From Candidatus Omnitrophota bacterium (GTDB taxonomy: Bacteria; Omnitrophota; Gorgyraeia; Gygaellales; Profunditerraquicolaceae), in NCBI GenBank assembly GCA_016208765.1, contig JACQXK010000004.1, positions 84,243 through 148,242 on the forward strand: DNA of 64,000 nucleotides. The letters are read 5' to 3'. The first letter of the stretch is position 1; each line of letters starts with the position of its first letter. The notes under the pieces are model-generated. The model was given only the letters and a program-made list of their open reading frames with translations, had not been told where the DNA came from and ran no database searches. The translations under genes and the position numbers were made by a program. This document shows positions 3,437-38,233 of the stretch, piece after piece.

Positions 3437-5659
3437 CTACTTTATAAAAAGCATCTCGCGGTACTTCGGCAGGTCCCAATGCTCGTCTGAGACTACCATT
3501 TCCAGATCATCAACATGCTTACGAATGTGATCCATTAACGGCTTCATTTCTTTATAATATACTTCTGCCCGTTTCTCCTGCTCCATTAAAGATGCTTTCT
3601 CTAAAAGCTTCTTTAATACTCCGGCATTACGCCTTACATAATAAATCTTTGCAACCACCTCATCTAAATGGTCTTTTAGATCCTCAAGCGCCTTTGTATC
3701 AGGCTTTAAACCGGTTTGTTTCTTCAAATTTGCCAAATCAATCAGGTTATCAGCCAATAATTTCTGATACTCAAAGCCTGCCGGAGCAACGCTTGCATTT
3801 ACCATTTCAATTAAAGTGTTTGCCTCAATTTCAAGGGTCAGGTTATACATGTGAATCCAAATATGGTAACGCGCAACCAGCTCTTCCTTGGATAAAACTT
3901 TATATTTTTCAAAGAGGGCTATATTTTCCTTTTTAATAAAAGCCTCTAATGCCTCAAATGTAGCAGCAACATTAGGAAGCCCTCTTTTCGTTGCCTCTTT
4001 TAACCACTCCTCAGAATAATTATTTCCCTCAAAACGCACATCCTTGGTTTCTTTAACCACCTGTGCAATTACCTGCAATACCGCAGAATTAAAATCTTTA
4101 CCGCTTGCCTGCGCTTTTTTGATTTTATCAGCAACATAATCAAGGGAGTCGGCAATAATGGTATTAATTACCGTAATTGATGTAGAAATATTCTGGGATG
4201 AACCTACGGCGCGAAATTCAAATTTCTGCCCGGTAAAAGCAAAAGGAGAAGTGCGGTTCCTGTCGGTTGAATCCTTGCTAAAAGTAGGCAGCCGGGCAAT
4301 TCCAAAATCAATAATATCGCTTTTTGAGATCTGCTTCTTTGTGCCTTTTTCAATCGTATCCAAAACGCGCGACAGCTGATCCCCCAGGAAAACACTGATA
4401 ATTGCAGGAGGAGCTTCATTTGCTCCTAAACGATGCTCGTTTCCGGCAAGAGCGACACTTGCGCGCAAAAGATCGGCATGCAGATAAACCGCTCTTAAAA
4501 CCGCGGACAACACTGCTAAAAACTGCAGGTTATCTTCCGGCGTTTGCCCGGGATTAAGCAGGTTGTTTCCTTTATCATCAGCTAACGACCAATTCAAATG
4601 CTTTCCGCTGCCGTTTATCCCTGCAAAAGGCTTCTCGTGTAAGAGGCAAACTAAATTATGGCGCAAAGCGACTTTCTTCATCAATTCCATCAAAAGCTGG
4701 TTGTGGTCAGCAGCAATGTTAGATTCCTCAAAAATCGGGGCAAACTCATATTGATGAGGCGCAACTTCATTATGCCTGGTCATTACGGGAATTCCTAACT
4801 TATACGCTTCCTCAGCAACTTCAAACATAAAATTCAAAACCCGCTCTTTAATTGTCCCGAAATATTGATCCTCTAACTGCTGGCCTTTAGGAGATGCTGC
4901 TCCTACAAGCGTCCTTCCGGTAAGCAAAAGATCCTGCCTTAGGTTATAATAATTTTTATCAATCAGAAAATACTCCTGCTCAGGGCCGCAGGTTGAAAAA
5001 ATCTTTTTAATATCTTTATGCCCGAAAACTTCCAGCAAATTCTTGGCTGCCTTGTTTAAAGCCTCGTCGGAACGTAAAAGCGGCAGTTTCTTATCCAAGG
5101 CCTCACCGTGATAAGAAATAAATATTGTCGGAATACAAAGGGTTTTCCCTAACTTACTCTCAATGATAAATGCCGGGCTTGAGGGATCCCATGCAGTATA
5201 TCCTCTTGCTTCAAAAGTAGCACGGATACCACCGGAAGGAAATGAGCTTGCATCCGGTTCGCCCTGAATAAGCTTTGATCCGGAAAATTTTTCAATCACC
5301 TTGCCCGGGCCGGTAATAGAAATAAAACTATCGTGCTTCTCTGCGGTCAAGCCGGTCATCGGCTGAAACCAGTGTGTGTAATAAGTAGCCCCTTTTGAAA
5401 TTGCCCACTCTTTCATGGCGTTGGCAATCTCATTAGCCTGTTCTTTGGAAATTTGTTTGCCCTCAGACATCCACGTCTTAAATGCCTCAAAGGTTGCATT
5501 GGAAATATACTTTTGCATAGTTTCAATATTAAAAGTATTCTCTCCAAAGTAAGCGGATACTTTTTCCGGCAAGTCCACCGTTTCTATTTCTATGCTCTTT
5601 ATCTTGGTCAACAACTCCTGTCTGATACCCATAAAAACCTCCACATAGTTAATGCGCAC
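3437..5659 (-). CDS. glnN: Glutamine synthetase type III (GSIII)
   Basis: 740 aa, the typical GSIII length. Catalytic-domain motifs include MTRHNEVAPHQYEFAPIFEE and the NGSGKH region. The gene lies in a nitrogen-gene neighbourhood. Confidence 0.85.
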   Translation of the reverse strand: MRINYVEVFMGIRQELLTKIKSIEIETVDLPEKVSAYFGENTFNIETMQKYISNATFEAFKTWMSEGKQISKEQANEIANAMKEWAISKGATYYTHWFQPMTGLTAEKHDSFISITGPGKVIEKFSGSKLIQGEPDASSFPSGGIRATFEARGYTAWDPSSPAFIIESKLGKTLCIPTIFISYHGEALDKKLPLLRSDEALNKAAKNLLEVFGHKDIKKIFSTCGPEQEYFLIDKNYYNLRQDLLLTGRTLVGAASPKGQQLEDQYFGTIKERVLNFMFEVAEEAYKLGIPVMTRHNEVAPHQYEFAPIFEESNIAADHNQLLMELMKKVALRHNLVCLLHEKPFAGINGSGKHLNWSLADDKGNNLLNPGQTPEDNLQFLAVLSAVLRAVYLHADLLRASVALAGNEHRLGANEAPPAIISVFLGDQLSRVLDTIEKGTKKQISKSDIIDFGIARLPTFSKDSTDRNRTSPFAFTGQKFEFRAVGSSQNISTSITVINTIIADSLDYVADKIKKAQASGKDFNSAVLQVIAQVVKETKDVRFEGNNYSEEWLKEATKRGLPNVAATFEALEAFIKKENIALFEKYKVLSKEELVARYHIWIHMYNLTLEIEANTLIEMVNASVAPAGFEYQKLLADNLIDLANLKKQTGLKPDTKALEDLKDHLDEVVAKIYYVRRNAGVLKKLLEKASLMEQEKRAEVYYKEMKPLMDHIRKHVDDLEMVVSDEHWDLPKYREMLFIK

Positions 5660-5868
5660 TTACGCCATTCCACATAAGCGTAATGTGCCTGTTATTTGTT
5701 ATATTCTACTATATTTTCCAGAAAAAACAAAGGCGTTCTTTTTATTAAGAACGCCTGCGTTCAAATTCGTTGTGTTGGCACTGCAATGTACCATAGCATA
5801 ATTCCTGCTCTACTCTTATTACAAGTAAACTTGTATCTATTTTGGTAACAAACTTTTAGTGGAACTAA
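5660..5868 (-). promoter_or_regulatory. glnN 5' leader: putative promoter motif, ANTAR-type dual hexaloop hairpins and an intrinsic terminator (attenuator)
   Basis: Plus-strand motif TACAAGTAAA 5820-5829 / TGGTAAC 5843-5849. Minus-strand RNA: P1 UGGUAC-AUUGCA-GUGCCA (5776-5793); P2 GAAC-GCAGGC-GUUC (5749-5763), sharing GGCGUUC with the terminator GGCGUUCUU-AAUAAA-AAGAACGCC (5732-5755) followed by UUUGUUUUUU. Confidence 0.6.
5732..5755 (-). terminator. Leader intrinsic terminator (attenuator) upstream of glnN
   Basis: Perfect 9-bp stem GGCGUUCUU/AAGAACGCC with a 6-nt loop, followed on the minus-strand RNA by UUUGUUUUUU. Confidence 0.6.
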
Positions 5869-6117
5869 TTATCCAATAGCAAGAGAGCCTCTCTCCCCTG
5901 TGCGTATGCGCACGCATTCAGATAACTCCATAACAAATATCTTACCGTCTCCTGTTGAGCCGCTTTTAGCGCCGTTAATAATGGCGTTAATGGCTGGTTC
6001 AAGGAAATTATCATTTACAGCTATTTCAAGACGGATCTTACGCAGGAGATTACCTGTTTCTTTGGCTCCGCGATAAACCTCGGTAACACCCTTTTGCCGA
6101 CCATGGCCCAAGCACAA
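5869..6117 (-). CDS. glnK: PII nitrogen regulatory protein (GlnK/GlnB), N-terminally truncated copy 1; it starts at the T-loop and lacks about 34 N-terminal residues
   Basis: [17 protein letters not shown]...[23 protein letters not shown] aligns to PII residues ~35-112. No MKKIEAII-type N-terminus is present in any frame upstream. The 5' end overlaps the tail of the amtB1 ORF by 68 nt. Confidence 0.6.
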   Translation of the reverse strand: MCLGHGRQKGVTEVYRGAKETGNLLRKIRLEIAVNDNFLEPAINAIINGAKSGSTGDGKIFVMELSECVRIRTGERGSLAIG

Positions 6118-7246
6118 ATTTATAGATCACAATTGTCCCGACAAACGTAAAACCAACAGCAACCGCAACACCCAGCAATTGAATAAACAGTTGTTTTGGA
6201 TTCCCAAAAAACAATCCGTCAGCTCCGGCAGGGTTAATCGCTTTTGAAGCAAACAAACCTGTGGCAATGGTCCCTAATATCCCGCCTACACCATGCACGC
6301 CAAAGGCATCAAGAGAATCGTCATAATTAAACATTGGTTTAATCAGCGCAACGGAGATAAAACAAAAAATACTTGCCAAAACCCCGATGATCAAAGCAGA
6401 TAGCGGGCTGACAAAACCACAAGCAGGCGTAATAGTAGCTAAACCGGCAATTATTCCGGTGACAGTCCCAAAGACCGTAGGTTTTCCATTGCGGATCCAC
6501 TCAAGCACCGCCCAGCTTAAACCTGCGCTTGCAGCAGCGGTATTTGTAACCACAAATGCATTGGCTGCCAAGCCATTTGCCGCAAGAGCGCTTCCTGCGT
6601 TAAAACCAAACCATCCAAACCAGAGCAATGCTGTTCCCAAAACCACTAAGGGCAAATTATGCGGAGCTGGCAAATGATGATCCATATTCTTACGCTTACC
6701 TATAATTATTGCCGTAACTAAAGCTGTAATCCCGGCGCTGGTATGCACAACAATCCCTCCTGCAAAATCAAGAACGCCCAAATTCTTTAACCATCCTCCA
6801 TCACCCCAAACCCAATGACAAAGCGGATCATACACAAAAGTCGCCCAAAGAAGCGTAAACACCAAAAAAGCAGAGAATCTTATTCTCTCAGCAAAAGCAC
6901 CAATAATCAGAGCTGGAGTGATCACAGCAAACATTGATTGAAAAGACATAAAAGCAATATGAGGTATAGTTACGCCATACGCTGCATAAGGTTCTGTTCC
7001 TACTCCAATCAAACCCAACCACGATAAACCACCCCAGAAACCTTTTCCCGGAGCAAAAGAAAGGCTATAACCAAAGATTACCCATTGCACGCTTAAAAGG
7101 CATATTGCCACAAAACACTGCATCAACACACTCAAAACATTTTTTCGCCTGACCATCCCTCCATAGAAGAAAGCCAGACCCGGAGTCATCAGCAAAACCA
7201 GGGCTGTTGAAAACAAAACCCATGCCGTATCACCTGAATTAATCAT
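6050..7246 (-). CDS. amtB: Ammonium transporter AmtB, copy 1; its 3' end runs out of frame into glnK
   Basis: 398 aa with full Amt/MEP conservation (FFYGG, HNLP..., GFNAGSA). The C-terminal tail ...[19 protein letters not shown] is the glnK T-loop region read in the -1 frame. Confidence 0.85.
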   Translation of the reverse strand: MINSGDTAWVLFSTALVLLMTPGLAFFYGGMVRRKNVLSVLMQCFVAICLLSVQWVIFGYSLSFAPGKGFWGGLSWLGLIGVGTEPYAAYGVTIPHIAFMSFQSMFAVITPALIIGAFAERIRFSAFLVFTLLWATFVYDPLCHWVWGDGGWLKNLGVLDFAGGIVVHTSAGITALVTAIIIGKRKNMDHHLPAPHNLPLVVLGTALLWFGWFGFNAGSALAANGLAANAFVVTNTAAASAGLSWAVLEWIRNGKPTVFGTVTGIIAGLATITPACGFVSPLSALIIGVLASIFCFISVALIKPMFNYDDSLDAFGVHGVGGILGTIATGLFASKAINPAGADGLFFGNPKQLFIQLLGVAVAVGFTFVGTIVIYKFVLGPWSAKGCYRGLSRSQRNR

Positions 7247-7464
7247 AACCAGCCTCCTCCTTATTTGCCTTATCTAAAAAACAAAGGCGTCCTTTAAATA
7301 AAGAACGCCTGCGTTCAATTTATGCTGTAACTGCTTCCGCACTCCGACGTGCTTAAGCATAAATCCATTAAAGCTGAGTTATAAGAAAAATACCCAACTT
7401 TTCGGATTATTATAAGTACAAGTAAAGAATTGGCTGTTTTGGTAACCCTTTTTTATCCTTTTTT
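7247..7464 (-). promoter_or_regulatory. amtB1 5' leader: bipartite motif, hexaloop hairpin and terminator (ANTAR-type attenuator)
   Basis: Plus-strand TACAAGTAAA 7417-7426 / TGGTAAC 7440-7446. P2 palindrome gaacgcctgcgttcaa at 7304-7319 overlaps the terminator ggcgtccttt...aagaacgcc (7286-7310), which is preceded on the plus strand by aaaaaacaaa (a U-tract on the RNA). Confidence 0.55.
7286..7310 (-). terminator. Leader intrinsic terminator upstream of amtB1
   Basis: Stem GGCGUUCUUU/AAAGGACGCC followed by UUUGUUUUUU on the minus-strand RNA. Confidence 0.55.
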
Positions 7465-7713
7465 CTATCCTATTGCCATCACCCCCCTCTCCTCAGTACG
7501 TATACGTATGCATTCAGATAACTCCATAACAAATATCTTACCGTCTCCTGTTGAGCCGCTTTTAGCACCGTTAATAATGGCGTTAATGGCTGGTTCAAGG
7601 AAATTATCATTTACAGCTATTTCAAGACGGATCTTACGCAGGAGATTACCTGTTTCTTTGGCTCCGCGATAAACCTCGGTAACACCCTTTTGCCGACCAT
7701 GGCCCAAGGCCAC
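7465..7713 (-). CDS. glnK: PII nitrogen regulatory protein (GlnK), N-terminally truncated copy 2
   Basis: (IV)[19 protein letters not shown]...[14 protein letters not shown]. It begins 5 nt after the amtB2 stop and again starts at the T-loop. About 190 nt are ~98 % identical to copy 1. Confidence 0.6.
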
Positions 7714-7721
7714 AATACTAA

Positions 7722-8951
7722 TTATTCTAAAACAGTATACGCGCTTTCACGGTGCTGGGTAAGGTCTAAACCGATAACCTCATCCTTCTCTGATACCCTG
7801 ATACCAATAAACAGATCCACCAATTTATAAATAACAAAAGTTGTAACAGCAGTATAAACAATGGTAACAAGCACTGTTATTAACTGCACCAAAAATTGTT
7901 TTGGATTCCCAAAAAATAATCCGTCAGCTCCGGCAGGGTTAATTGCCTTTGAAGCGAAGAGCCCTGTTGCCAAAGCGCCCCAAATCCCACCCACACAATG
8001 CACGCCAAAAGCATCCAGCGCATCGTCATATCCTAATCTCGGCTTTATGATCGTTACTGCCACAAAACAAAACACGCTTACTAATAACCCGATCACAATT
8101 GCCGGCACCACCCCCACGTAACCGGCTGCAGGAGTAATTGCCACAAGCCCTGCTACTGCGCCGCTGACTGTTCCAAAAAGAGTAGGCTTACCATTACGCA
8201 ACCATTCAATCAGCGCCCAGGAAAGTCCTGCAGCAGCAGCCGCAGTATTAGTAACCACAAACGCGTTTACTGCCAAGCCATTTGCCGCAAGAGCACTTCC
8301 TGCGTTAAAACCAAACCATCCGAACCAAAGTAATGCCGTACCTAAAACTACAAAAGGCAAATTATGCGGAGCAGGCAAATGATGATCAAGATTTTTCCTG
8401 CGGCCGATTACAAGCGCTGTTACAATAGCTGCAATTCCAGCGTTAATATGCACAACTGTTCCGCCTGCAAAATCCAAAGCTCCTAAATTTCTTAAAAATC
8501 CTCCTATGCCCCACACCCAATGGCAAAGCGGATTATACACAAAAGTCGCCCAGAGAATTGTAAAAACTAAAAACGCCGAAAATTTCATCCTCTCGGCAAA
8601 AGCTCCAATAATAAGCGCCGGCGTAATAATTGCGAACATCGCCTGAAAGATCATAAATGCCTGATGAGGAATTGTTCCTGCATAATCTGCATACGGCTCA
8701 AGGCCCACGCCATTTAAAGCAAACCAACTAAATCCTCCCCAAAAGCCTTTTCCGGGAGCAAATGACAAGCTATAACCGAATAAAACCCATTGCAGGCTTA
8801 AAACACAAAGCACAATAAAACACTGCATCAGAACCCCGAGAATATTCTTGCGCCTGACCATACCCCCATAAAAAAATGCCAGGCCCGGCGTCATAAGCAT
8901 TACTAACGCCGTAGACATCAACACCCATGCTGTATCACCTGCATTAATCAT
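7722..8951 (-). CDS. amtB: Ammonium transporter AmtB, copy 2, with an intact C-terminal tail
   Basis: 409 aa, about 75 % identical to copy 1. It has the canonical cytoplasmic tail ...[26 protein letters not shown]. Confidence 0.9.
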
Positions 8952-13899: not shown

Positions 13900-14553
13900 T
13901 TAAAACCTGAAACTAATATTGCTTACCAGAACATTGGCATATGTCCATTTGTCTGCAGGTTTCTTTGAATTAAGCATGTACCCGATATTAAAAGAAATAT
14001 TCTTATTAAGCGCATAACTGATGCCTACAGTGCTGCGGTGCTCTGTAATCCGGTCAAGCTTACAGTCATAAAAAGGCTCTTCGCTTATAAATGGGCCGAT
14101 TTCCTGTGTGCCAAGAATTTTAAAACCCTTGTAGAGCCGCAGGCTGTTACGGAAAATAGTTTTTGCTTTATCGTAATCATACTGAAAACGCAGGCGATTA
14201 GAAAGTTTAATGTTTGAAAACTTTTCAAAACTAAATTTAAAAGTATTGTCCAAATAAGATATCTCTGAACCATCCCACAAAGCTCCGGTATTTTTATCTT
14301 GATGAACATAATATGGTGTTATTTCCCAGAATTTATTAATTTTAAATGAAACTCCGGTCTCAAGTTTAAATAAATAATTATAGCTCATATCATTCTTAAA
14401 ACGCCACTCAGGAATAACAACAAAACTTACTTTATCGGTAATTTCGTAAGTAAATGTCTCCTGGTTCCAATATTCCCAATCCCGCGCCGCACAAGCATGT
14501 CGGTAAATAAAAATCATGCTTAGCGCAGTTAGGCAAACAAATAATCTTCTCAT
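13900..14553 (-). CDS. Putative outer-membrane beta-barrel protein (DUF2490-like)
   Basis: Signal peptide, beta-strand-rich composition and a C-terminal ...NISFRF. Confidence 0.4.
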   Translation of the reverse strand: MRRLFVCLTALSMIFIYRHACAARDWEYWNQETFTYEITDKVSFVVIPEWRFKNDMSYNYLFKLETGVSFKINKFWEITPYYVHQDKNTGALWDGSEISYLDNTFKFSFEKFSNIKLSNRLRFQYDYDKAKTIFRNSLRLYKGFKILGTQEIGPFISEEPFYDCKLDRITEHRSTVGISYALNKNISFNIGYMLNSKKPADKWTYANVLVSNISFRF

Positions 14554-14562
14554 TGGCTTATT

Positions 14563-15258
14563 TTATAATTTCTCAGGATGATGTTTCACTACTTTTGCCT
14601 CAATCATATAAATTACATCCTCGGCAATATTGGTTGTGTGGTCGCAAATCCGCTCCAAATGGCGGGCGATTAAAAGTAGCGGCACAGCCCGGTCTGCGGT
14701 TTTAGGATCTTTGGCCATATAATCATTTATAAGCTCATCGGAAACAAAATTACGCAGCCTGTCTGCTTCGGGGTCGGCAAAGAGGACTTTTTTAGCCAGC
14801 TCCACATCGCGTTTTATAAAAGCGTCAATAGCATCACGCACCATGTTCTGGGCAATAACAGAAAGCTTGGGAATATCTATCAGGGGTTTAAGTAACGGCT
14901 TATCGGCAATCTCCAAAACGCGCTGGCTGATATCCAGGGCCAAATCCGCAATACGTTCAAGCTCGGCATTGATCTTCATGCCGGTAGTCAAAAATCTCAG
15001 GTCGCTTGCCATCGGCTGATGCCGGGCGATTAAATCTATGCAGCGCTCATCAATAAACAATTCCAACTCATCAATTTTGTCATCAGCCCTGATTACTTCC
15101 TGCGCGAGCAGTTTATCGCGATTTTTTAAAGCCTCAATAGATTTATAAATCGCCTCCTGGGCCAAAACACCCATTCTTAGAATATCTTTATGTAATTCCT
15201 TCAACTCTTCATCAAAATGTCTTTGCACTATAGTCTCCTGTCTCCGGTCACCAGTCAC
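14563..15258 (-). CDS. phoU: Phosphate signalling complex protein PhoU
   Basis: Two PhoU repeats (DxxxD helices), 231 aa, located downstream of pstB. Confidence 0.85.
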   Translation of the reverse strand: MTGDRRQETIVQRHFDEELKELHKDILRMGVLAQEAIYKSIEALKNRDKLLAQEVIRADDKIDELELFIDERCIDLIARHQPMASDLRFLTTGMKINAELERIADLALDISQRVLEIADKPLLKPLIDIPKLSVIAQNMVRDAIDAFIKRDVELAKKVLFADPEADRLRNFVSDELINDYMAKDPKTADRAVPLLLIARHLERICDHTTNIAEDVIYMIEAKVVKHHPEKL

Positions 15259-15280: not shown

Positions 15281-15616
15281 TTAAATAGATTTTCTCAAAT
15301 ACTTAATAAAACCAGAACATAGTTTCCTAACATTTGTCGCTAAAGTATAAACTGAATTAAACTCTTCTTGATTGATATAATCTGAATCTAATGCCACATA
15401 CAAATGAGATTGCACCTCGGAAGCAGATCTTTTCGCATATCCTAAGAATTGAATAAACTGCTGGTCCGAATCAGAATCAAACCCCTCAGCAATGTTTGCC
15501 ATACAAGATACTGCCGCTCTCTGTATTTGCTCTCTTAATCCATAATCCCTATTATTAGCAATTTTCTCTCCTAATAGATAAACCGCTTTTGCTAATTTTC
15601 TTGCTTCCTGCCACAC
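15281..15616 (-). CDS. Four-helix-bundle protein (23S rRNA intervening-sequence protein family)
   Basis: 111 aa; the AVSCMANIAEGF...ASEVQSHL pattern is typical of TIGR02436-type proteins. It is inserted between pstB and phoU. Confidence 0.6.
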   Translation of the reverse strand: MWQEARKLAKAVYLLGEKIANNRDYGLREQIQRAAVSCMANIAEGFDSDSDQQFIQFLGYAKRSASEVQSHLYVALDSDYINQEEFNSVYTLATNVRKLCSGFIKYLRKSI

Positions 15617-15661: not shown

Positions 15662-16414
15662 TTATCCGTATCTGCCGGTAATATAATCCTCTGTGCGCTT
15701 ATCTGAGGGATGAGTAAAGATATCATCTGTTTTTCCAAATTCAATCAATTCTCCCAAAAGCATAAATCCTGTATCATCAGAAATTCGCGCTGCCTGTTGC
15801 ATATTATGTGTCACAATCACTATTGTATAATTATTTTTTAATTCGCGCATTAATTCCTCAATACGCTGAGTTGCCTGCGGGTCAAGGGTAGAACAGGGCT
15901 CATCCATCAACAGAACTTCCGGCTTAACTGCCACAAGGCGGGCAATACAAAGCCTTTGTTTTTGCTCTAACGATAAACTCAATGCTGATTTGTGCAGTTT
16001 GTCTTTTAATTCATCCCATAATAACACCGACCTCAGGCTCTCTTCTGCCAAAGAATCAAGCTCAGATTTACGTATAGAATTATGAATACGCTGGCCAAAA
16101 ACTACATTCTCATAAATTGATAGCGGAAACGGATTTGGCCGCTGGAACACCATGCCGATCTTCTTTCTTAAAACCACCAAATCTGCATCCGTATCCAGGA
16201 TATTCTCCTGGTCTACGATGATCTCCCCGCTGGTGCGCACGCCTTCAATTAAATCATTCATACGATTAAAAATACGCAGCAATGTTGACTTGCCGCAACC
16301 CGAAGGCCCGATAATAGCGGTAATCTTATTCCCGCTAAAAGCAGCATTCACATTAATAATTGCCTGAAAATCACCATACCATAAATTTAGGTTCTTAGTT
16401 AATATTTTTGCCAT
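15662..16414 (-). CDS. pstB: Phosphate ABC transporter ATP-binding protein PstB (copy 2)
   Basis: Walker [10 protein letters not shown], signature LSLEQKQRL, Walker B LLMDEP. Confidence 0.85.
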
Positions 16415-16422
16415 AAATAATC

Positions 16423-17169
16423 CTATCCGAATTTACCTCTGATATAATCATCTGTGCGCTGGTCACCTGGCGCTGTAAAAATTTTATCAGTCTGGTCAAC
16501 TTCAACCAACTCTCCGTTTAAAAAAAAGGCTGTCCTGTCCCCTACACGCGCAGCTTGTTTTACATTATTTGTAACCAGGACAATTGTATAATGCTGTTTT
16601 AATTTCAACATTGCTTCTTCCACTTTTGCAGTAGAAATAGGGTCTAAACCGGAACAGGGCTCATCAAACAAGACCACCTCCGGTTTAACTGCTAAAGTCC
16701 GGGCAATACAAAGCCTCTGTTGCTGCCCTCCTGAAAGCTTAAAAGCAGAAGTATTCAACCGGTCTTTTACCTCTTCCCAAAGATAGGCTTGTTTTAAACA
16801 AGATTCCACATTTTCTTTAAGCTTGGTTTTATTTCTTATTCCCTGCATCCTCGGCCCATAAGCCACATTATCAAATATTGACAACGGCAACGGCAAAGGA
16901 AGGGCAAAAACCATACCCACTCTACGACGGAGTTCTTCAACATCAACCTTCTTAATACTTAAGGTATCAAGATCAATTTCTCCGGACATGCGGAAGCTTA
17001 ACTGCAATTCGTTTAACCTGTTGAGCATACGGATAAAAGTGGTTTTGCCGCTATTTGACGGCCCAATCACGCTTAGAATTTCATTTGACTGCACCTCAAG
17101 ATTAACCTCTCTTAAAGAATGCACATCTCCAAACCAAACATTAATATTAGTTATTCTAAATTTAGTCAT
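16423..17169 (-). CDS. pstB: Phosphate ABC transporter ATP-binding protein PstB (copy 1)
   Basis: Walker [10 protein letters not shown], signature LSGGQQQRL, Walker B LFDEP. Confidence 0.85.
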
Positions 17170-17214
17170 CTCTCAACCCAAAATGAATTTGCTGATTTTG
17201 TAAATAAATATCAC

Positions 17215-17400
17215 TTTTACTTATAGCGGGTTCCGGGGCTTGATTTGAGCAGCACGTTGAAAATTTGAGCGGGCACGGATGCCCCGCTATTAACTGTCTG
17301 GCAGAGCGAAAATTTTCACCGAGCGCAGCCACACCTCGCCGGGGTGTGGCAAGCGGTGCTGCGAAAACAAGCCCCGGAACCCGCTGTCTTAAAATCGCCT
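17215..17400. repeat. GC-rich structured intergenic element (nested-stem, REP-like or candidate ncRNA) between pstA and pstB
   Basis: Outer 17-bp inverted repeat gcgggttccggggcttg / caagccccggaacccgc. It encloses inner stems cagcac/gtgctg, gcggg-cacggatg-ccccgc and gccacacc-tcgccgg-ggtgtggc. GC is much higher than the flanking sequence. Confidence 0.5.
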
Positions 17401-17430
17401 TAAACAAATTACAAAGCGAATTCATCTTCA

Positions 17431-18282
17431 TCACCATTTCTTCAGTTTCCTAAACTTATATCTTATAATTACCGCCACCAAATTTACCGATAGCACCATA
17501 AACAACAGCACCAAAGCTGTGCCGTAGCGGATCTTTTCATCTACATTCGGCACCTGCGTAGAAATAACATACAAATGATACGGTAGAGCCATAGCCTGAT
17601 CAAAAATAGAACTTGGTAATTGCGGCAGGTAAAATGCCGCTACAGTAAAAAGAATAGGAGCGGTTTCTCCTGCTGCCCTGCCCACTCCTAAAATTGTCCC
17701 GGTAATAATCCCCGGAACAGCATTAGGCAAAACTATGTTACGAATCGTCTGCCATTTGCTTGCTCCTAAAGACAGGCTGACCTCGCGAAATGACTGTGGC
17801 ACGCTCTCAAGCGCCTCAACGGAAGAAGTAATAATTATAGGTAAAATCATCAGGCCCAAAGTCAATGAACCAGAAAGAATGGATGCCCCGAATTTAAAGA
17901 AAACAACAAACAACGCCAGGCCGAACAAACCGTAAACAACCGAAGGAACACCTGCCAAATTAACAATAGACAGCTTAATCAGGCGGGTAAGAATATTTGC
18001 CCTTGCATATTCACTCAAGTATACTGCAGCCAATAAACCAATTGGCAGGGCGAAAGAAATCGCGCCCAAAACTAAATACACTGTGCCGACAATTGCCGGA
18101 AAAATTCCTCCGGCACGCATCCCCTGGCGTGGCATATCTGTTAAAAACTGCCAGTTAATTGCAGGAAGGCCTTTCTGAATTATAATTACAATGATTAACC
18201 CAACAGGCACTATAATTAAAAGCGTGGCAAGCAGTAAAAAGAAAAAAGCAATTTTCTGGGTACGTTGAGGGTTTCTCTTCAT
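17431..18282 (-). CDS. pstA: Phosphate ABC transporter permease PstA
   Basis: 283 aa with six TM segments and the EAA-like loop (GASKWQTIRNIVLP). Confidence 0.85.
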   Translation of the reverse strand: MKRNPQRTQKIAFFFLLLATLLIIVPVGLIIVIIIQKGLPAINWQFLTDMPRQGMRAGGIFPAIVGTVYLVLGAISFALPIGLLAAVYLSEYARANILTRLIKLSIVNLAGVPSVVYGLFGLALFVVFFKFGASILSGSLTLGLMILPIIITSSVEALESVPQSFREVSLSLGASKWQTIRNIVLPNAVPGIITGTILGVGRAAGETAPILFTVAAFYLPQLPSSIFDQAMALPYHLYVISTQVPNVDEKIRYGTALVLLFMVLSVNLVAVIIRYKFRKLKKW

Positions 18283-19142
18283 CTTCTCTTATGTAAAAAT
18301 AGATCCGCGGTTACGTTAATCGCAAAACTAATCACAAATAAAACTATCCCGATGGCAAACAAGGCAAAATAATGTTCGCTTCCCACCACCACTTCGCCCA
18401 TTTCTGCGGCAATTGTGGCGGTCAATGTGCGCACAGGCTGTAAGATAGTGTGAGGGATAATTGCAGAATTACCCGTAATCATCATCACTGCCATTGTCTC
18501 GCCAATTACTCTTCCAATCCCAAGCATCACTGCAGCAACAATTCCCGAGGAAGCTGCGGGAAGGAGCACCCTGTAAATTGTCTGCCAATGCGTAGCCCCC
18601 AAGGCAAGGGCACCTTCTTTGTAATTCTTAGGCACAGAATAAAGCGCATCCTCTGCAATAGAAACGATTGTAGGCATGGCCATAAAAGCAAGCATAATTG
18701 AACCGGACAAGGCAGTCAGCCCCGTCGGAAGATGAAAAATGCTTTTTACCCAAGGCACCAAAGTCACCATGCCAATAAAACCCAAAACAACACTGGGTAT
18801 TGCCGCTAACAATTCAATCCCTGATTTTAATATTTCTTTTACTTTTTGCGGGGCGATTTCAGCAATATATACGGCACAGGCAATGCCAATTGGAACAGAT
18901 ATAACCGCAGCTCCAAGCGTAACTAAAAGAGATCCAAGGATCAAAGGCAAGATCCCTAATTGCGGCGGCTCAGAAATAGGATACCAGCTCTTGCCGAACA
19001 AAAAATTAAAAGGCGAAACGCTTTTAAAGACAGCAATGCCTTCCTTGGCAAGGAAAATAAATATAAGGATAACAAAAAATATAGAAGCTAATCCGCAAAT
19101 CAGGATTAGCTTTTCTATAACAAATTCTTTAATCTTACGCAT
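18279..19142 (-). CDS. pstC: Phosphate ABC transporter permease PstC
   Basis: 287 aa; GATHWQTIYRVLLPAASSGI loop. The start overlaps pstA by 4 nt. Confidence 0.85.
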   Translation of the reverse strand: MRKIKEFVIEKLILICGLASIFFVILIFIFLAKEGIAVFKSVSPFNFLFGKSWYPISEPPQLGILPLILGSLLVTLGAAVISVPIGIACAVYIAEIAPQKVKEILKSGIELLAAIPSVVLGFIGMVTLVPWVKSIFHLPTGLTALSGSIMLAFMAMPTIVSIAEDALYSVPKNYKEGALALGATHWQTIYRVLLPAASSGIVAAVMLGIGRVIGETMAVMMITGNSAIIPHTILQPVRTLTATIAAEMGEVVVGSEHYFALFAIGIVLFVISFAINVTADLFLHKRR

Positions 19143-19172: not shown

Positions 19173-20024
19173 CTACTTCACCGGCACAAAATCAGTCTTT
19201 AAAACAATCTCCTGCCCTTCTTTGGAAAGGCAAAAATCAAAAAATTTCTTTATCTGTCCCTGTGGCGCATTATTGGTATAAAAGAATAATGGCCGTGAAA
19301 TCGGATACTTGCCATTAATCACATTTTCCGTAACTGGAGAGACAAATTCCGATTTTGCATCCTTGGCCACTGCAACAGCTTTCTGCTTAGGAGAAATATA
19401 ACCCATGCCATAATAACCAATTGCCCCGGTATTTTGAGTAATTTCGTCGGCAATTGCCTGCGAAGAAGGCAGCAACAGCGCGCCTGGGGTAAACTCTTCC
19501 TTTGAATTCGGATCATTCTTTCTTAAAACGTGCTCCTTAAAATAAACATGTGTCCCGGAATTTACCTCGCGGGACAAAACCACAATCTGTAAATCTTGCC
19601 CGCCAACCTGCTTCCAATTAGTAATTTTACCGGTAAAAATTTGCGCCAACTGGTCAATAGTGAGTTTATCCACAGGATTCTTGGGGTTTACTACTACTGC
19701 CAAACCGTCCAAAGCCACTTTTGCCTCGTAAGGCTTAACTCCTCTTGCTTCTGCAAGGCTGATTTCTTTCCCCTTAATATTACGTGAGCTCATAGCAATG
19801 CTACAGGTACCACTGATCAAGCTGGAAAGGCCTGTCCCCGACCCGCCGCCGGTAACAGCGATAAACTCACCGGGATTAACCTCCATATACCTCTCTGCCC
19901 AAGCCTGCGCAAGATTCACCATAGTGTCTGAGCCTTTCACCTGAACGCAATTTTTTGCAGGAGCTGCTAATGCTAAACTGCAGAAAAACAAATTTATCAA
20001 CAAAACTGAAACTATTCTAAACAT
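19173..20024 (-). CDS. pstS: Phosphate-binding protein PstS
   Basis: 283 aa periplasmic-binding protein with a signal peptide and the SGTGLSS...GAIGY motifs. Confidence 0.85.
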   Translation of the reverse strand: MFRIVSVLLINLFFCSLALAAPAKNCVQVKGSDTMVNLAQAWAERYMEVNPGEFIAVTGGGSGTGLSSLISGTCSIAMSSRNIKGKEISLAEARGVKPYEAKVALDGLAVVVNPKNPVDKLTIDQLAQIFTGKITNWKQVGGQDLQIVVLSREVNSGTHVYFKEHVLRKNDPNSKEEFTPGALLLPSSQAIADEITQNTGAIGYYGMGYISPKQKAVAVAKDAKSEFVSPVTENVINGKYPISRPLFFYTNNAPQGQIKKFFDFCLSKEGQEIVLKTDFVPVK

Positions 20025-20086: not shown

Positions 20087-20104
20087 GTAAAATCTATGTA
20101 AAAT
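20087..20104 (-). promoter_or_regulatory. Pho box upstream of pstS
   Basis: Direct repeats TGTAAAA-tcta-TGTAAAA (11-bp periodicity), giving TTTTACA-N4-TTTTACA on the coding strand. The site lies about 70 nt upstream of the pstS start. Confidence 0.55.
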
Positions 20105-21393
20105 TAGAATTTTACATTCCAGTCAACCTGCACAACCTGATACGACCTTGAGTTTGTATAACCGAAATTACCCTTCATGTATTCATTATAGTAATAATCC
20201 AGGCCCAACCAGGTATTTTTGCCTAAACCAAAATCAAGGCCTGCTTCAAAACCTTTAATTCCTGTTTTTCCACCATAACGGTCAGAATCCGGAAGGATAT
20301 CCAGAATTGAGTCTTTTCCAAGTTTGCAGTAATTAAACTTAAACTGCCAATCTTTCCATTTTTCTACTTTTTGCGCTCCTGCCTTAAAGCCCAACATCCA
20401 ACCAGTATCATCACCCGGGACATCTTTTACAACATTTGTAACATACTCGCCGAAAAGTGCAAAATAAGGCAGGCTGTATCCAATTGCCTTAAGCGGCTCA
20501 TTTATAGAAATTTCAAAAGCAGGAGTAAAATTTTTATAATTATACTTTAGCCCACCATTAACCGTGCTATTTGTTCCTGAGCTGGCTGTTAATGATTTCC
20601 CGACTAAACCTGTAAAATTATAAAATGAGGCAGCAATCTTTGCCGAAACCGCATCCGTTAATTGCTGTTTTAACCCACCTTGCAATACATACATCGTTGG
20701 GTCTGCTTCATCTCCGGCTGCTTCTCCAATTAAAAATACACCCAGATTAGAAAATAACTCAGTTTTAGAACCTATCTTAGTGCTTAATGCCGCTACCCCA
20801 CCTTCAGGCGTAATATCCGTATCCCAAATCAAATCTCCCGGCTCCCAAAGAGGATTTTGCATTTTACCTCCGGTAAAACTCGCCCATTTCCAAGGAGAAT
20901 AAGTAGCATAGGCATAATCAAGAACAATACTCTTTTTTGTAGAACTTGAGCCTAGTGTAATATTAGTTGAACGAGGGTCAGTAGTTGAACCTGTGGCGAT
21001 ACCAACACCTGCTTTTATTTTATCGTTTACCTTCCCCTCTAACCCGAGCCTCGCACGAATACGCGCCCTGTCCTGGCCATCGCGCGGAGATTGGGTATTC
21101 CCAGCCAGCTCTTTTGCCTGGTCATGCTGATATCTTAACCTGAAATCCCCCTTTAGCTTAATATTCTGCACCCAGCTTGGCAAGGCAGCGCTTTTACCCT
21201 GAGCAACTTCTTTTTTTACCTGCTCTTGAGTTTCAGTTTTAACCACCTGTGCCTCTCCTGGACTAAGTACGCCTTTTTCTACAAGCTTCTGCAGGAGAAC
21301 ATCAATTTCTCCGGCAAAAATATTTCCTGCATTTAAAAAAACGCTTGATGCCACAAAACACAACACCAGCCACAACCCCAACATCTTTTTCAT
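20104..21393 (-). CDS. Phosphate-selective porin (OprO/OprP family)
   Basis: 429 aa, signal peptide, C-terminal ...VDWNVKF. It sits immediately upstream of pstS. Confidence 0.65.
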   Translation of the reverse strand: MKKMLGLWLVLCFVASSVFLNAGNIFAGEIDVLLQKLVEKGVLSPGEAQVVKTETQEQVKKEVAQGKSAALPSWVQNIKLKGDFRLRYQHDQAKELAGNTQSPRDGQDRARIRARLGLEGKVNDKIKAGVGIATGSTTDPRSTNITLGSSSTKKSIVLDYAYATYSPWKWASFTGGKMQNPLWEPGDLIWDTDITPEGGVAALSTKIGSKTELFSNLGVFLIGEAAGDEADPTMYVLQGGLKQQLTDAVSAKIAASFYNFTGLVGKSLTASSGTNSTVNGGLKYNYKNFTPAFEISINEPLKAIGYSLPYFALFGEYVTNVVKDVPGDDTGWMLGFKAGAQKVEKWKDWQFKFNYCKLGKDSILDILPDSDRYGGKTGIKGFEAGLDFGLGKNTWLGLDYYYNEYMKGNFGYTNSRSYQVVQVDWNVKF

Positions 21394-36890: not shown

Positions 36891-38143
36891 TTATTCTTTA
36901 GAAATTAAAGGGGTTTTTTTGCCCTTAACTTTTTTAGGAGGGTTCTTCCAGAATTCACGCACTACATAATAAGCCTTGCGCGGAATACGCTTATTCAAAC
37001 CATCCTGCATCTCTTCTGACAAAGCCACAATCCCAAACCACTCTTCGTTCATATTCTTGTTATTTTCAGCTTTAATATCAAAATAATAACTGCCGTTGGA
37101 CCAGTTTGATCCGGTATCATGGATCTTCCATGTATCGGGGCTTGATTCATTATGCTTCCACCACTCATCACTCCATTCAAAGATAGTCCCTCCGAGGCAA
37201 TTTCCCTCGCCTTCTTTATTATTTGCCAGATTATCGTAGATCTGGCGCCACTGAGATTCCAGAAAGAATGCCTGCATGTTTTGATTCTCGCTCTTTTGAT
37301 AAGCATCATAACAATCCGCGCCAAATTCTGCCAGAAGCACCGGTTTGTCAAAAGTCATTTTTAAGGACTTAAAAAGATTGCCAAAAGTTTTTCCACGGTA
37401 AATAATACAGGCAACCAAATCCACATCCGGGCAATATTCTTTTGCATACTCCAGGCCGATCAGCTCCCCGTTACCCAGAGCTACCGGATGCTGCGTGTCA
37501 ATTTTATGGATTTCATTTGCTATTGAATTTACAAAAGAATAATAAACTTTATAACGCATGGCCTTTTGTTTCTGCGGGTCAGGTTCCTTGTCAATCTCGT
37601 CGGTTGACCAACGGTTGATCTGGCCAAAGCAGGAATAGTTATTTTCATTGCCGAGGATCCACATTAAAATACCAGGCTCATCCTTATATAAATTCACCAT
37701 CTCAAGGACTTCTTTGCGGATCTTCTCTTCAAAATTTTTATCTCCATACAACGGGCAAGGATATTCCCAAAACCCCAGCCAATGCCCAAGAATAGTGCGA
37801 ATTCCGAATTTATCATATAAATCACGAATTACTTCTTTAACTTTCTGCGGATCATCGCCGGCTTGATATATCCTGACAGTATTAACCCCCATCTCCTGCA
37901 TTAGTTTTCCATCAACAAGCCAGGGCTTATTTGGATCTGACCACCAGTCATAATCATGGCTCTGCCCAATAGGCACAGGATTATAGCAAACACCCTTTAC
38001 AACATAAGGCTTGTTGTTAACCATTAACTGGTAATGATTATTTTTTAATTTTTTAATAAAGACTTTGGGCAGGGGCCGGCTGGACATGCCGGTGAATAAA
38101 AAAATACAGCTGATTAAAAGAATTAAATAATTTTTTTTCATTG
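36891..38143 (-). CDS. Putative secreted TIM-barrel glycoside hydrolase (GH clan A-like; LGNENNY motif)
   Basis: GVNTVRIY and ILGNENNY motifs are shared with the hydrolase domain of 39527..41863. The track start at 38207 lies inside a REP element, so the start is taken at MKKNYLILL (38143). Confidence 0.45.
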
Positions 38144-38147
38144 AATA

Positions 38148-38223
38148 GTAGGGACGGTTCTGAAACACGGTTAAATCTGTCCCCTTGGGGGACACTTTCA
38201 AGCGCAAATCAGAACCGTCCCTA
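38148..38223. repeat. Solo REP doublet (the same REP family as the RAYT arms)
   Basis: tagggacggttctgaaacacggttaaatctgtcccc ttgg gggacactttcaagcgcaaatcagaaccgtcccta: both arms are arranged head-to-head without a transposase. Confidence 0.75.
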
Positions 38224-38233
38224 GCATATAATT

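Follow-up and report, generated by a model that had tools for sequence, protein, structure and literature searches.

The window, a stretch of 64 kb from an Omnitrophota bacterium, carries on its minus strand the pst operon pstSCAB-B-phoU, in which pstB is present as a tandem pair; its PstA is 100% identical to a protein from a 'Candidatus Omnitrophica bacterium' MAG. The genes pstA and pstB are separated by an insertion, which consists of a structured core and two inverted arms and is spanned by an open reading frame, here named ORF91. The features of the locus, in the direction of transcription, are the following:

19173-20024, minus strand, pstS
18279-19142, minus strand, pstC
17431-18282, minus strand, pstA, the gene upstream of the insertion (TIGR00974, E = 8e-89)
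17162-17437, minus strand, ORF91, a 91-codon frame that spans the insert between pstA and pstB
17163-17430, minus strand, the whole insertion, 268 nt, delimited against the empty site with a boundary of +/- about 7 nt
17405-17430, minus strand, terminal inverted arm on the 5' side of the transcript, UGAAGAUGAAUUCGCUUUGUAAUUUG, pairing with 17180-17205 in both folds
17224-17385, minus strand, structured core of 162 nt, the unit of the family, from matches of nhmmer and of the covariance model R1; in the sense orientation of the pst transcript
17180-17205, minus strand, terminal inverted arm on the 3' side of the transcript, written on the plus strand as AAAATGAATTTGCTGATTTTGTAAAT, pairing with 17405-17430
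16423-17169, minus strand, first pstB of the tandem pair, the gene downstream of the insertion (TIGR00972, E = 2.3e-101)
15662-16414, minus strand, second pstB
15281-15616, minus strand, gene of the 23S_rRNA_IVP family
14563-15258, minus strand, phoU

Composition and folding of the element in the window

In 100-nt windows the GC fraction reaches 0.58-0.61 at the element, against 0.41 for the window as a whole, so that the conspicuous GC-richness pointed out by an earlier, sequence-only reading of this DNA is confirmed. The perfect outer stem of 17 bp described in the same reading is also present: GCGGGTTCCGGGGCTTG occurs without mismatches at 17226-17242 on the plus strand and at 17368-17384 on the minus strand (none of 100 shuffles contained two matches), and a repeat finder delimited the outer arms of this stem as 17225-17246 and 17364-17385, 22 nt with 95% complementarity. 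The inner stem (cagcac/gtgctg) and the two internal hairpins that had been described were all found in the sequence. Its view of the extent and of the fold is to be revised in part: the stems stand, while the insert is larger (about 17163-17430, 268 nt) and, by comparison across copies, the middle section forms a different helix, P4, and a pseudoknot instead. For the 261-nt pstA-pstB spacer the folding energy is -104.6 kcal/mol (z = -6.6) on the minus strand and -109.9 kcal/mol (z = -9.4) on the plus strand, and none of 200 shuffles was as stable.

The Rfam scan that had been proposed, with the prospect of a match to a known family, returned no Rfam 15 family for the element: there was no overlapping match up to E = 10, no match to typical and compact copies of the family described below up to E = 1, and no model at its gathering score in the whole window; a search for tRNA and tmRNA genes found none. 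The covariance model R1, run without filters on the 64 kb, gave a sole element match at 17223-17384 on the minus strand (144.3 bits, E = 2.5e-40), with a palindromic echo of 19.5 bits on the plus strand at the element; the next-best match elsewhere scored 10.2 bits (E = 0.38), in agreement with the earlier statement that no further copy occurs within the window.

The insertion at the pstA/pstB overlap

Relatives of the locus were collected as contigs encoding PstA homologues. At least 13 contigs with 88-90% identical PstA have an empty site, in which pstA and pstB overlap by 7 nt and lack any spacer; the overlap reads ATGGTAA, in the context …AAATGGTAAAATTC…. The filled sites are those of the window, of two identical Logan contigs (L001 and L002), of a 97% relative (L004, GCA_020063045.1) and of a third MAG (L022). 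Gene maps and an alignment of the window and L004 with three empty sites (L006, L011 and L016) place the extra 268 nt exactly at the 7-nt overlap between the pstA stop and the pstB start. These comparisons show that, in an ancestor of the window's Omnitrophota lineage, the pstA/pstB overlap received an insertion of about 268 nt, which was then kept.

The insert, 268 nt long, has no transposase gene, and its only open reading frame is ORF91, whose product matches no family in Pfam or NCBIfam. The ATG of ORF91 is the ancestral pstB start, overlapping the pstA stop as ATGGTGA, and its TAA lies inside ATGACTAA, overlapping the present pstB start. The frame is annotated as a gene in three assemblies and has not been closed by 27 substitutions in the window, L004 and L022; across the family it is uninterrupted in 38 of 87 copies, versus about 19 expected, the other frames being open in 7-27 copies. 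These features would favour a genuine small protein gene between pstA and pstB, with both ends overlapping the flanking genes. Between the window and L004, however, ORF91 has a dS of 0.14 and a dN of 0.096, that is a dN/dS of 0.69, and a shifted frame gives a similar ratio, whereas the flanking genes have a dS of 0.6-0.9 and a dN/dS of 0.02-0.08. Among 5.8 billion proteins only three relatives were found, each of them the translation of a copy of the element, and the frame is not maintained across the family because the length of a linker in the core varies. The present data argue against ORF91 as a protein gene, and this reading, rejected on the grounds of dN/dS, homologue search and frame statistics, has hardly any probability left. 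Orthologues with a conserved protein-coding region had been named as a possible refutation of the structured element; ORF91, however, evolves like non-coding sequence. The two frames listed at this place in the sequence-only reading (17162-17437 on the minus strand and 17265-17453 on the plus strand) both exist, and their dismissal as artefacts of the GC content was right as far as coding is concerned, but it overlooked that ORF91 starts on the old pstB ATG and stops on the new one.

Conservation of the pst copy

The insert differs between the window and L004 at 26 of 261 positions (10%), while 124 of 308 fourfold sites of pstA, pstB and the second pstB differ (40%; Fisher p = 4e-17). Its parts have similar rates, with 7 of 45 and 6 of 54 differences in the arms and 13 of 162 in the core. 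Recent recombination was considered as the cause of this low divergence and was rejected, since sliding identity between the two sequences shows no recombination boundary. Among the 13 differences in the core, four make up two exact compensatory double changes, from G-C to A-U in P1 and from A-U to G-C in P3.

An insert that is fourfold more conserved than synonymous sites indicates that the pst copy is now under selection, beyond mere tolerance; moreover, since a fixed single copy is not selected for transposition, its conservation points to a role at the locus. This role could be just the dependence of pstB on the insert for its translation start.

A family of dispersed copies

A second copy of the core was reached through one of the three protein relatives of ORF91; it lies downstream of comEC in a contig (L019) from the same sample as L001, with other flanks and with compensatory changes in the stems. 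In species-representative genomes, a scan with 20-mers turned up L022 as well as four diverged copies within 8 kb of an Omnitrophica WOR_2 MAG, and a scan of JGI metagenomes, with a pattern built from blocks common to the first copies, matched at least 120 stretches; about 35 of these matches, of 35 nt each, were set aside as parts of an unrelated coding gene found in soil bacteria. The family pattern had no match in viral contigs, and the single match in an exact 17-mer scan of viral contigs, in GC-rich DNA, was attributed to chance. With nhmmer and R1, 91 copies were located in 616 kb of fetched sequence; the family of the 162-nt core has at least 90 distinct copies.

Copies in unrelated contigs have 165-235 nt in common at 81-96% identity, whereas their flanks are not shared, and the family unit measures 165-180 nt. 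Their density is about one additional copy per 60 kb of flanking sequence, compared with one in the 64 kb of the window. The carrier contigs range in GC from 0.36 to 0.73; a GC-rich one belongs to Omnitrophota by its CysS, and a compact variant adjoins an RmlA labelled 'Parcubacteria group bacterium' at NCBI. Nearly all copies are intergenic, between co-directional genes and often 5-50 nt from a neighbour, and their orientation relative to the flanking genes is the same in 43 cases, opposite in 34 and ambiguous in 14; copies that share a contig mostly form convergent pairs. The neighbouring proteins (128) match 146 Pfam families, which are mostly housekeeping ones, for example ferredoxins, MurJ, radical SAM enzymes, RecA, QueA/Tgt and thioredoxin; none of the 25 most frequent of these families, which leave aside those seen in a single protein, is a transposase family.

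The element thus belongs to a family of dispersed structured repeats found mainly in Omnitrophota bacteria. The search for further copies that the sequence-only reading had advised, extended to genomes and metagenomes, speaks for its option of a miniature mobile element, given the empty site in close relatives and at least 90 related copies in unrelated contexts. In Rfam 15 and the searchable literature we found no description of this family, and in the literature none of Omnitrophota repeats or non-coding RNAs either; a large genomic survey of Omnitrophota annotated RNA with Rfam only (PMC10066038). The family appears to be previously uncatalogued; by kind it is a small structured intergenic repeat.

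The same distribution bears on a reading of the insert as a cis-regulator specific to the pst locus, such as a riboswitch, an attenuator or a terminator. The location in a phosphate-regulated operon and the conservation of the pst copy would agree with it; however, the same operon occurs in close relatives without the element, the element adjoins unrelated housekeeping genes in both orientations, and the locus has neither a terminator-like site at the element nor an Rfam match. A riboswitch or leader was rejected because the neighbour genes are unrelated and the orientation is mixed; a locus-specific cis-regulator is already contradicted by the family distribution and is very improbable. Several known classes were also considered, namely c-di-GMP-II, ZTP, HDV-like and twister RNAs as well as retron msr-msd, IS110 bridge RNA, TnpB omega RNA and attC sites, and are not supported by Rfam or by the architecture.

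Ends and terminal arms

Core-only copies mostly end as TTTT(A)GCGGG...CCCGC(T)AAAA, and apart from a short run of T ahead of the core and one of A behind it, both of which extend the closing stem P1, nothing in the flanks is conserved. The tips of P1 covary, with GCGGG/CCCGC, GTGGG/CCCAC, ACGGG/CCCGT and TTGGG/CCCAA. Inspection of several filled ends gave no consistent repeat that could be a target-site duplication; the pst site has only an imperfect direct repeat, GGTGATGA versus GGGTTGAGA, or in a longer form TTTAGGAAGATGAAGAAATGGTGA versus TTTTGGATTGAGAAATGAGTAA.

The arms of the window insert are imperfect and AT-rich, and are related to the AATGAAYCTG arms of other copies. The arm motif, AATGAAYCTGNCG…TTCTCGCTCA / …TTCGAGCGAATGG, is found on both sides of the core at 25-60 nt in L036, L024 and two copies of L081, and it also ends a separate repeat of 220-280 nt with its own conserved interior. 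The insert of the window is thus built as arm, core and arm, while most family members are the core alone; the AATGAAT arms are missing from most copies, so that mobilisation may have followed two different routes. This suggests either two ways of moving or one repeat nested in another. A search of 1 Mb of fetched loci for an autonomous element with the same arms found no long arm pair.

A shared fold with a pseudoknot

The helices and blocks of the core, in the direction of transcription, are the following:

17368-17385, minus strand, 5' strand of P1, AGCGGGUUCCGGGGCUUG, covarying across the family
17357-17362, minus strand, 5' strand of P2, GCAGCA, pairing with 17249-17254; the helix is 93.9% paired, with AU/GC and GC/CG swaps
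17328-17350, minus strand, hairpin P3, GCCACACC-CCGGCGA-GGUGUGGC, 97.6% paired, with compensatory changes in 8 of 8 pairs
17310-17321, minus strand, 5' strand of P4, CG..GAAAAUUU, pairing with 17255-17266, from the column-pair scan
17303-17309, minus strand, invariant UCGCUCU, from invariant alignment columns; the sequence was in the search pattern
17300-17303, minus strand, 5' strand of the pseudoknot stem S1, UGCC, pairing with GGCA at 17280-17283
17288-17299, minus strand, hypervariable AU-rich linker, 9-17 nt across the family
17267-17287, minus strand, GCGGG-GCAUCCGUG-CCCGC-UC, comprising two invariant parts, the stem S2/P5 and the block A(A/U)CCGUGCCCGCUC, as well as the 3' strand of S1
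17255-17266, minus strand, 3' strand of P4, AAAUUUUC..CG, from the column-pair scan and the model alignment
17249-17254, minus strand, 3' strand of P2, UGCUGC, from the model alignment
17225-17242, minus strand, 3' strand of P1, CAAGCCCCGGAACCCGCU, covarying across the family

The fold proceeds from the closing stem P1 through P2 to a three-way junction, which bears P3 and P4; P4 encloses an apical core made of UCGCUCU, S1, the AU-rich linker, AGCGGG and the A(A/U)CCGUGCCCGCUC block. In most copies P1 has a conserved asymmetric internal loop, whereas P1 of the window is perfect. The window core fits the consensus fold with 52 of 52 nested pairs canonical, at -77.4 kcal/mol without the pseudoknot; its minimum free energy as a single sequence is -89.2 kcal/mol, and the corresponding structure deviates from the consensus in the P4 region. 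P3 has a 7-nt loop with the consensus CCNGCGW, and its stem is made of three different complementary sequences in the window, L004 and L019.

In a MAFFT alignment of 72 copies, 88.7% of the cells are paired, versus 70.4% in shuffles and 35-49% with slid partners, and 43 of the 51 pairs have changes on both sides. The alignment of 91 copies to the model gives 91.8% of cells paired, and the compensatory cells amount to 990, compared with 267 in shuffles. The pseudoknot stem S1 has a consensus of 4 bp, U-N-N-C with G-N'-N'-A, and its two middle pairs are paired in 99-100% of the copies in the MAFFT alignment and in 97% in the model alignment, with three to four pair types each. The CCCGC of the A(A/U)CCGUGCCCGCUC block can pair with GCGGG, and this would give an H-type pseudoknot; as GCGGG/CCCGC of P5 never varies, covariation neither supports nor contradicts this stem. 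For those blocks that were part of the search pattern, the invariance is partly by construction. Overall, covariation strongly supports a shared multi-helix fold with a 4-bp pseudoknot, and the suggestion of a structured element made in the sequence-only reading holds for the fold, with compensatory changes in 46 of the 51 pairs of the model alignment.

RNA or single-stranded DNA

G-U pairs and A-C mismatches number 89 versus 64 in the MAFFT alignment and 109 versus 98 in the model alignment, and these counts do not differ significantly between copies co-oriented with and opposed to the flanking genes. They are symmetric and hence uninformative for the choice of a strand; their near equality fits the outcome of random decay of young copies, and fits DNA pairing, pairing of both RNA strands and an RNA gene alike. 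A position profile of the 45 nt before 80 copies had no conserved promoter-like box; individual TATAAT-like strings were noticed but are not general, and a promoter of the element's own was discarded. P1 is preceded by U's, and A's follow after the element; this arrangement, together with a scan that found no terminator-like site at the element, excluded an intrinsic terminator. The pseudoknot, like the asymmetric invariant blocks, speaks rather for RNA, whereas the missing promoter and terminator, and the mixed orientation as well, speak rather for a passive element, co-transcribed or acting at the DNA level.

If the fold matters as single-stranded DNA, the family would be a REPIN- or PATE-like hairpin repeat copied by an enzyme that recognises structure, of the HUH/Y1 or IS110 type, and any effect as RNA would be incidental. 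The pairs are almost all strictly Watson-Crick, with G-U no commoner than A-C; no target-site duplication was seen and the ends covary to their tips; the convergent arrangement of most copies on the same contig would also agree with this explanation, and hairpin repeats are known to serve as targets of IS110 and as substrates of RAYT (PMC3184786, PMC12288879). However, no RAYT, Y1 or IS110 gene is among the 25 most frequent neighbour Pfam families listed, the ends have no GTAG or CGTC tag, a pseudoknot is unusual in DNA substrates, and selection with compensatory changes at the fixed pst copy is hard to explain by competence for transposition alone. An explanation by single-stranded DNA is thus possible, although rather unlikely.

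Alternatively, the core could be a functional structured RNA of a new class (for example a ribozyme, a scaffold for protein binding, or an sRNA that acts in trans and has a variable loop), which multiplies selfishly; the pst copy would then be one such gene, or a domesticated one. The multi-branched fold, the covarying pseudoknot and the invariant unpaired UCGCUCU and A(A/U)CCGUGCCCGCUC would agree with this, as would the conserved asymmetric internal loop in P1, the purifying selection on the pst copy and the compact variants, which keep the architecture over 36-73% GC, including on the Parcubacteria-labelled contig; a selfish sRNA module has a precedent in ssr9 of ISPpu9 (PMC12288879). It is set against by the wobble pairs, which lack strand asymmetry (G-U 109 versus A-C 98), by the want of a conserved upstream promoter-like box and of a terminator after the element, by copies that lie 5-50 nt from the flanking genes in both orientations, by the missing Rfam relative that could give a functional clue, and by an invariance that derives in part from the search pattern used to collect the family. 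It is doubtful, and less probable than the explanation by single-stranded DNA, that the core of 170 nt represents a new pseudoknotted RNA class (self-cleaving, protein-recruiting, or a scaffold for the hypervariable loop of 9-17 nt), selfish in Omnitrophota and in at least one CPR (Parcubacteria-labelled) genome, of which the pst copy would have been co-opted for expression of the operon.

Comparison with known repeats

The repeat bcr1 (Group A bcr) of the Bacillus cereus group is about 155-170 nt long and mobile, and its structure is maintained by compensatory changes (PMC3184786). The Omnitrophota element is similar in size, in being dispersed and non-autonomous, in its presence or absence between genomes and in a branched fold kept by compensation; however, there is no sequence relation, the phylum is another one, and the 5-bp direct repeats of bcr1 have no clear counterpart. 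Moreover, bcr1 is a cruciform of two hairpins, whereas the Omnitrophota element has a closing stem, a three-way junction, a pseudoknot and invariant unpaired blocks.

MIRU elements are located in polycistronic operons, have ORFs that overlap the flanking genes, and occupy sites that are empty in related species (PMC3184786). ORF91, by overlapping the pstA stop (ATGGTGA) and the pstB start, has exactly the MIRU arrangement; unlike the Omnitrophota element, MIRUs are 40-100 bp long, often in tandem, and do not have an elaborate conserved fold. The open frame is found in only 38 of the 87 copies examined in the Omnitrophota family, so that translational read-through is not family-wide, and this is a further difference from MIRU.

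ERIC/IRU and Correia (NEMIS/CREE) sequences are imperfect palindromes of 100-170 bp in transcribed intergenic regions, which form long RNA hairpins and can alter mRNA decay (PMC3184786). They share with the Omnitrophota element the location in either orientation in intergenic regions and the hairpin folding. They differ in having TA-type duplications and simple hairpins, whereas the element is devoid of a clear target-site duplication and has a non-palindromic invariant apical core, with arms in common with a second repeat family.

In the classical model for the malE-malF REP, the repeat is a barrier to 3'-exonucleases that sets the relative expression of the neighbouring cistrons. The element resembles REP and BIME sequences as a GC-rich nested palindrome in an operon spacer, with stems that evolve by compensation. 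REP sequences are described in PMC3733652 as units of 20-40 bp with GTAG or CGTC tags; the element differs from the REP/REPIN-RAYT system in its unit of 165-180 nt, in its ends, (T)AGCGGG without a tag, and in that no RAYT is among the 25 most frequent neighbour families listed. Finally, ssr9 of ISPpu9, of the IS110 family of Pseudomonas putida, encodes a small RNA and acts as a selfish mobile module, with orphan copies (PMC12288879); it depends on an identified transposase and inserts in REPs, whereas for the Omnitrophota element no transposase was found among the 25 most frequent neighbour families.

Proposed origin and role of the pst element

Taken together, these data point to the pst element as a copy of a dispersed, non-autonomous, MITE-like structured repeat, with a proposed role in the operon, a reading to which a probability of about 0.7 is assigned. 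The small size, the terminal inverted repeats, the dispersed copies and the filled and empty sites of a MITE are all present. The fold itself would be under selection, either as a form recognised during copying as single-stranded DNA or RNA, or as an RNA module; the non-palindromic invariant core, which is found over 36-73% GC and on the Parcubacteria-labelled contig, goes beyond what a plain MITE needs.

At the pst locus the element is sense-oriented inside the pstSCAB-B-phoU transcript and would hence be transcribed. Having ended pstA, ribosomes would most likely reinitiate at the old pstB ATG, pass through the element along the 91 codons of ORF91, and terminate on the new pstB ATG; such a read-through would keep the translational coupling between pstA and pstB. 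At the same time, a structure of about -80 to -100 kcal/mol probably affects the processing or decay of the mRNA between pstSCA and pstBB-phoU; the mRNA stabiliser partitioning the operon, one of the options of the sequence-only reading, would be a role of this kind.

Omnitrophota are uncultivated and Rfam 15 has no model for the element; with the R1 model, spurious 'hypothetical protein' calls can be masked, among them that of ORF91 in the annotation of public MAGs. The pst locus represents a natural experiment, in which a structured element of 268 nt landed on a coupled stop/start overlap in an essential transporter operon and was retained under purifying selection, with a frame that bridges both genes. 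The occurrence of the pseudoknotted core across very different GC contents, and possibly across phyla, leaves room for an RNA function; a biochemical activity of this invariant core, if there is one, would make it a new class of RNA that abounds in metagenomes of groundwater and sediment.

Gene content of the phosphate operon

The window contains neither tRNA nor tmRNA genes, and no Rfam family reached the gathering score anywhere across its 64 kb (1-64000). A repeat finder reported an inverted repeat of 45 nt, 73% complementary and with a 3-nt spacer, at 38140-38232. The pst operon and its surroundings include the following features:

13900-14553, minus strand: DUF2490 gene, between phoU and nadE
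15281-15616, minus strand: 23S_rRNA_IVP family gene, 111 aa (PF05635, E = 1e-32)
15662-17169, minus strand: two tandem pstB paralogues
20104-21393: putative phosphate porin gene, preceding pstS

The first pstB scores slightly below the NCBIfam PstB cut-off (338 bits against 343), and its dN versus L004, the 97% relative in which the insert is present, is higher than that of the second copy (0.065 and 0.036, respectively). A second complete pst operon, comprising pstSCAB, a low-molecular-weight phosphatase gene and phoU, is found a few kb upstream in both L004 (1-2656) and L006, a relative with an empty pstA/pstB site (3641-8121). The 23S_rRNA_IVP gene is flanked by the second pstB and phoU and is a second lineage-specific insertion in the window operon, because it is missing from the same operon of L004. 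In the latter, nadE directly follows phoU, whereas in the window the DUF2490 gene lies between them.

Arrangement of the core copies and associated repeats

Some copies of the structured core are split by an extra insertion of 50-55 nt, and they are located on three of the fetched loci:

L050:799-1021, split core copy
L084:2709-2931, split core copy
L087:879-1101, split core copy

In L050 this insertion is a small palindrome, CCCCGTTA…TAACGGGG, and thus repeats are nested within repeats. When two core copies share one contig, they nearly always occur in plus-then-minus order. On L021, a contig of an Omnitrophica WOR_2 MAG, two convergent pairs of diverged copies (332-673 and 6465-6866) surround a five-gene operon. 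On locus L105 (951-2797) two inverted copies bracket a 466-aa ORF, which is located between queA and tgt and had no match in a Pfam search; the whole looks like a cassette.

A separate family of small repeats, 220-280 nt in length, ends in AATGAAYCTG terminal inverted arms and is frequently preceded by a core copy, 12-30 nt upstream. Its members include:

L043:2353-2578
L078:5271-5505
L077:9873-10093
L137:134-364
L029:3840-4056
L081:633-874

The interior, which is apparently structured, has its own conserved sequence, …CGGCGGCTGCTGAACTC…CTCT…TCAAACAGCATCGCCG…. Other intergenic motifs recur near core copies (flanks of loci L109, L126, L063, L065, L057; L104, L120, L048), among them the palindrome GGGGACTGTCCC, frequently in the form CCCCGAAGGGGACTGTCCC, and TTTGATGCGGGATATTGTTCGCGTGCAATT.

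Taxonomic reach of the core family

One further locus carries a compact variant of the core:

L056:847-1001 (the same as L136), compact core variant, 79 bits

The gene directly 5′ of this variant is rmlA, whose exact protein is labelled “Parcubacteria group bacterium” at NCBI (KKS26449.1); therefore, the core family may extend past Omnitrophota.
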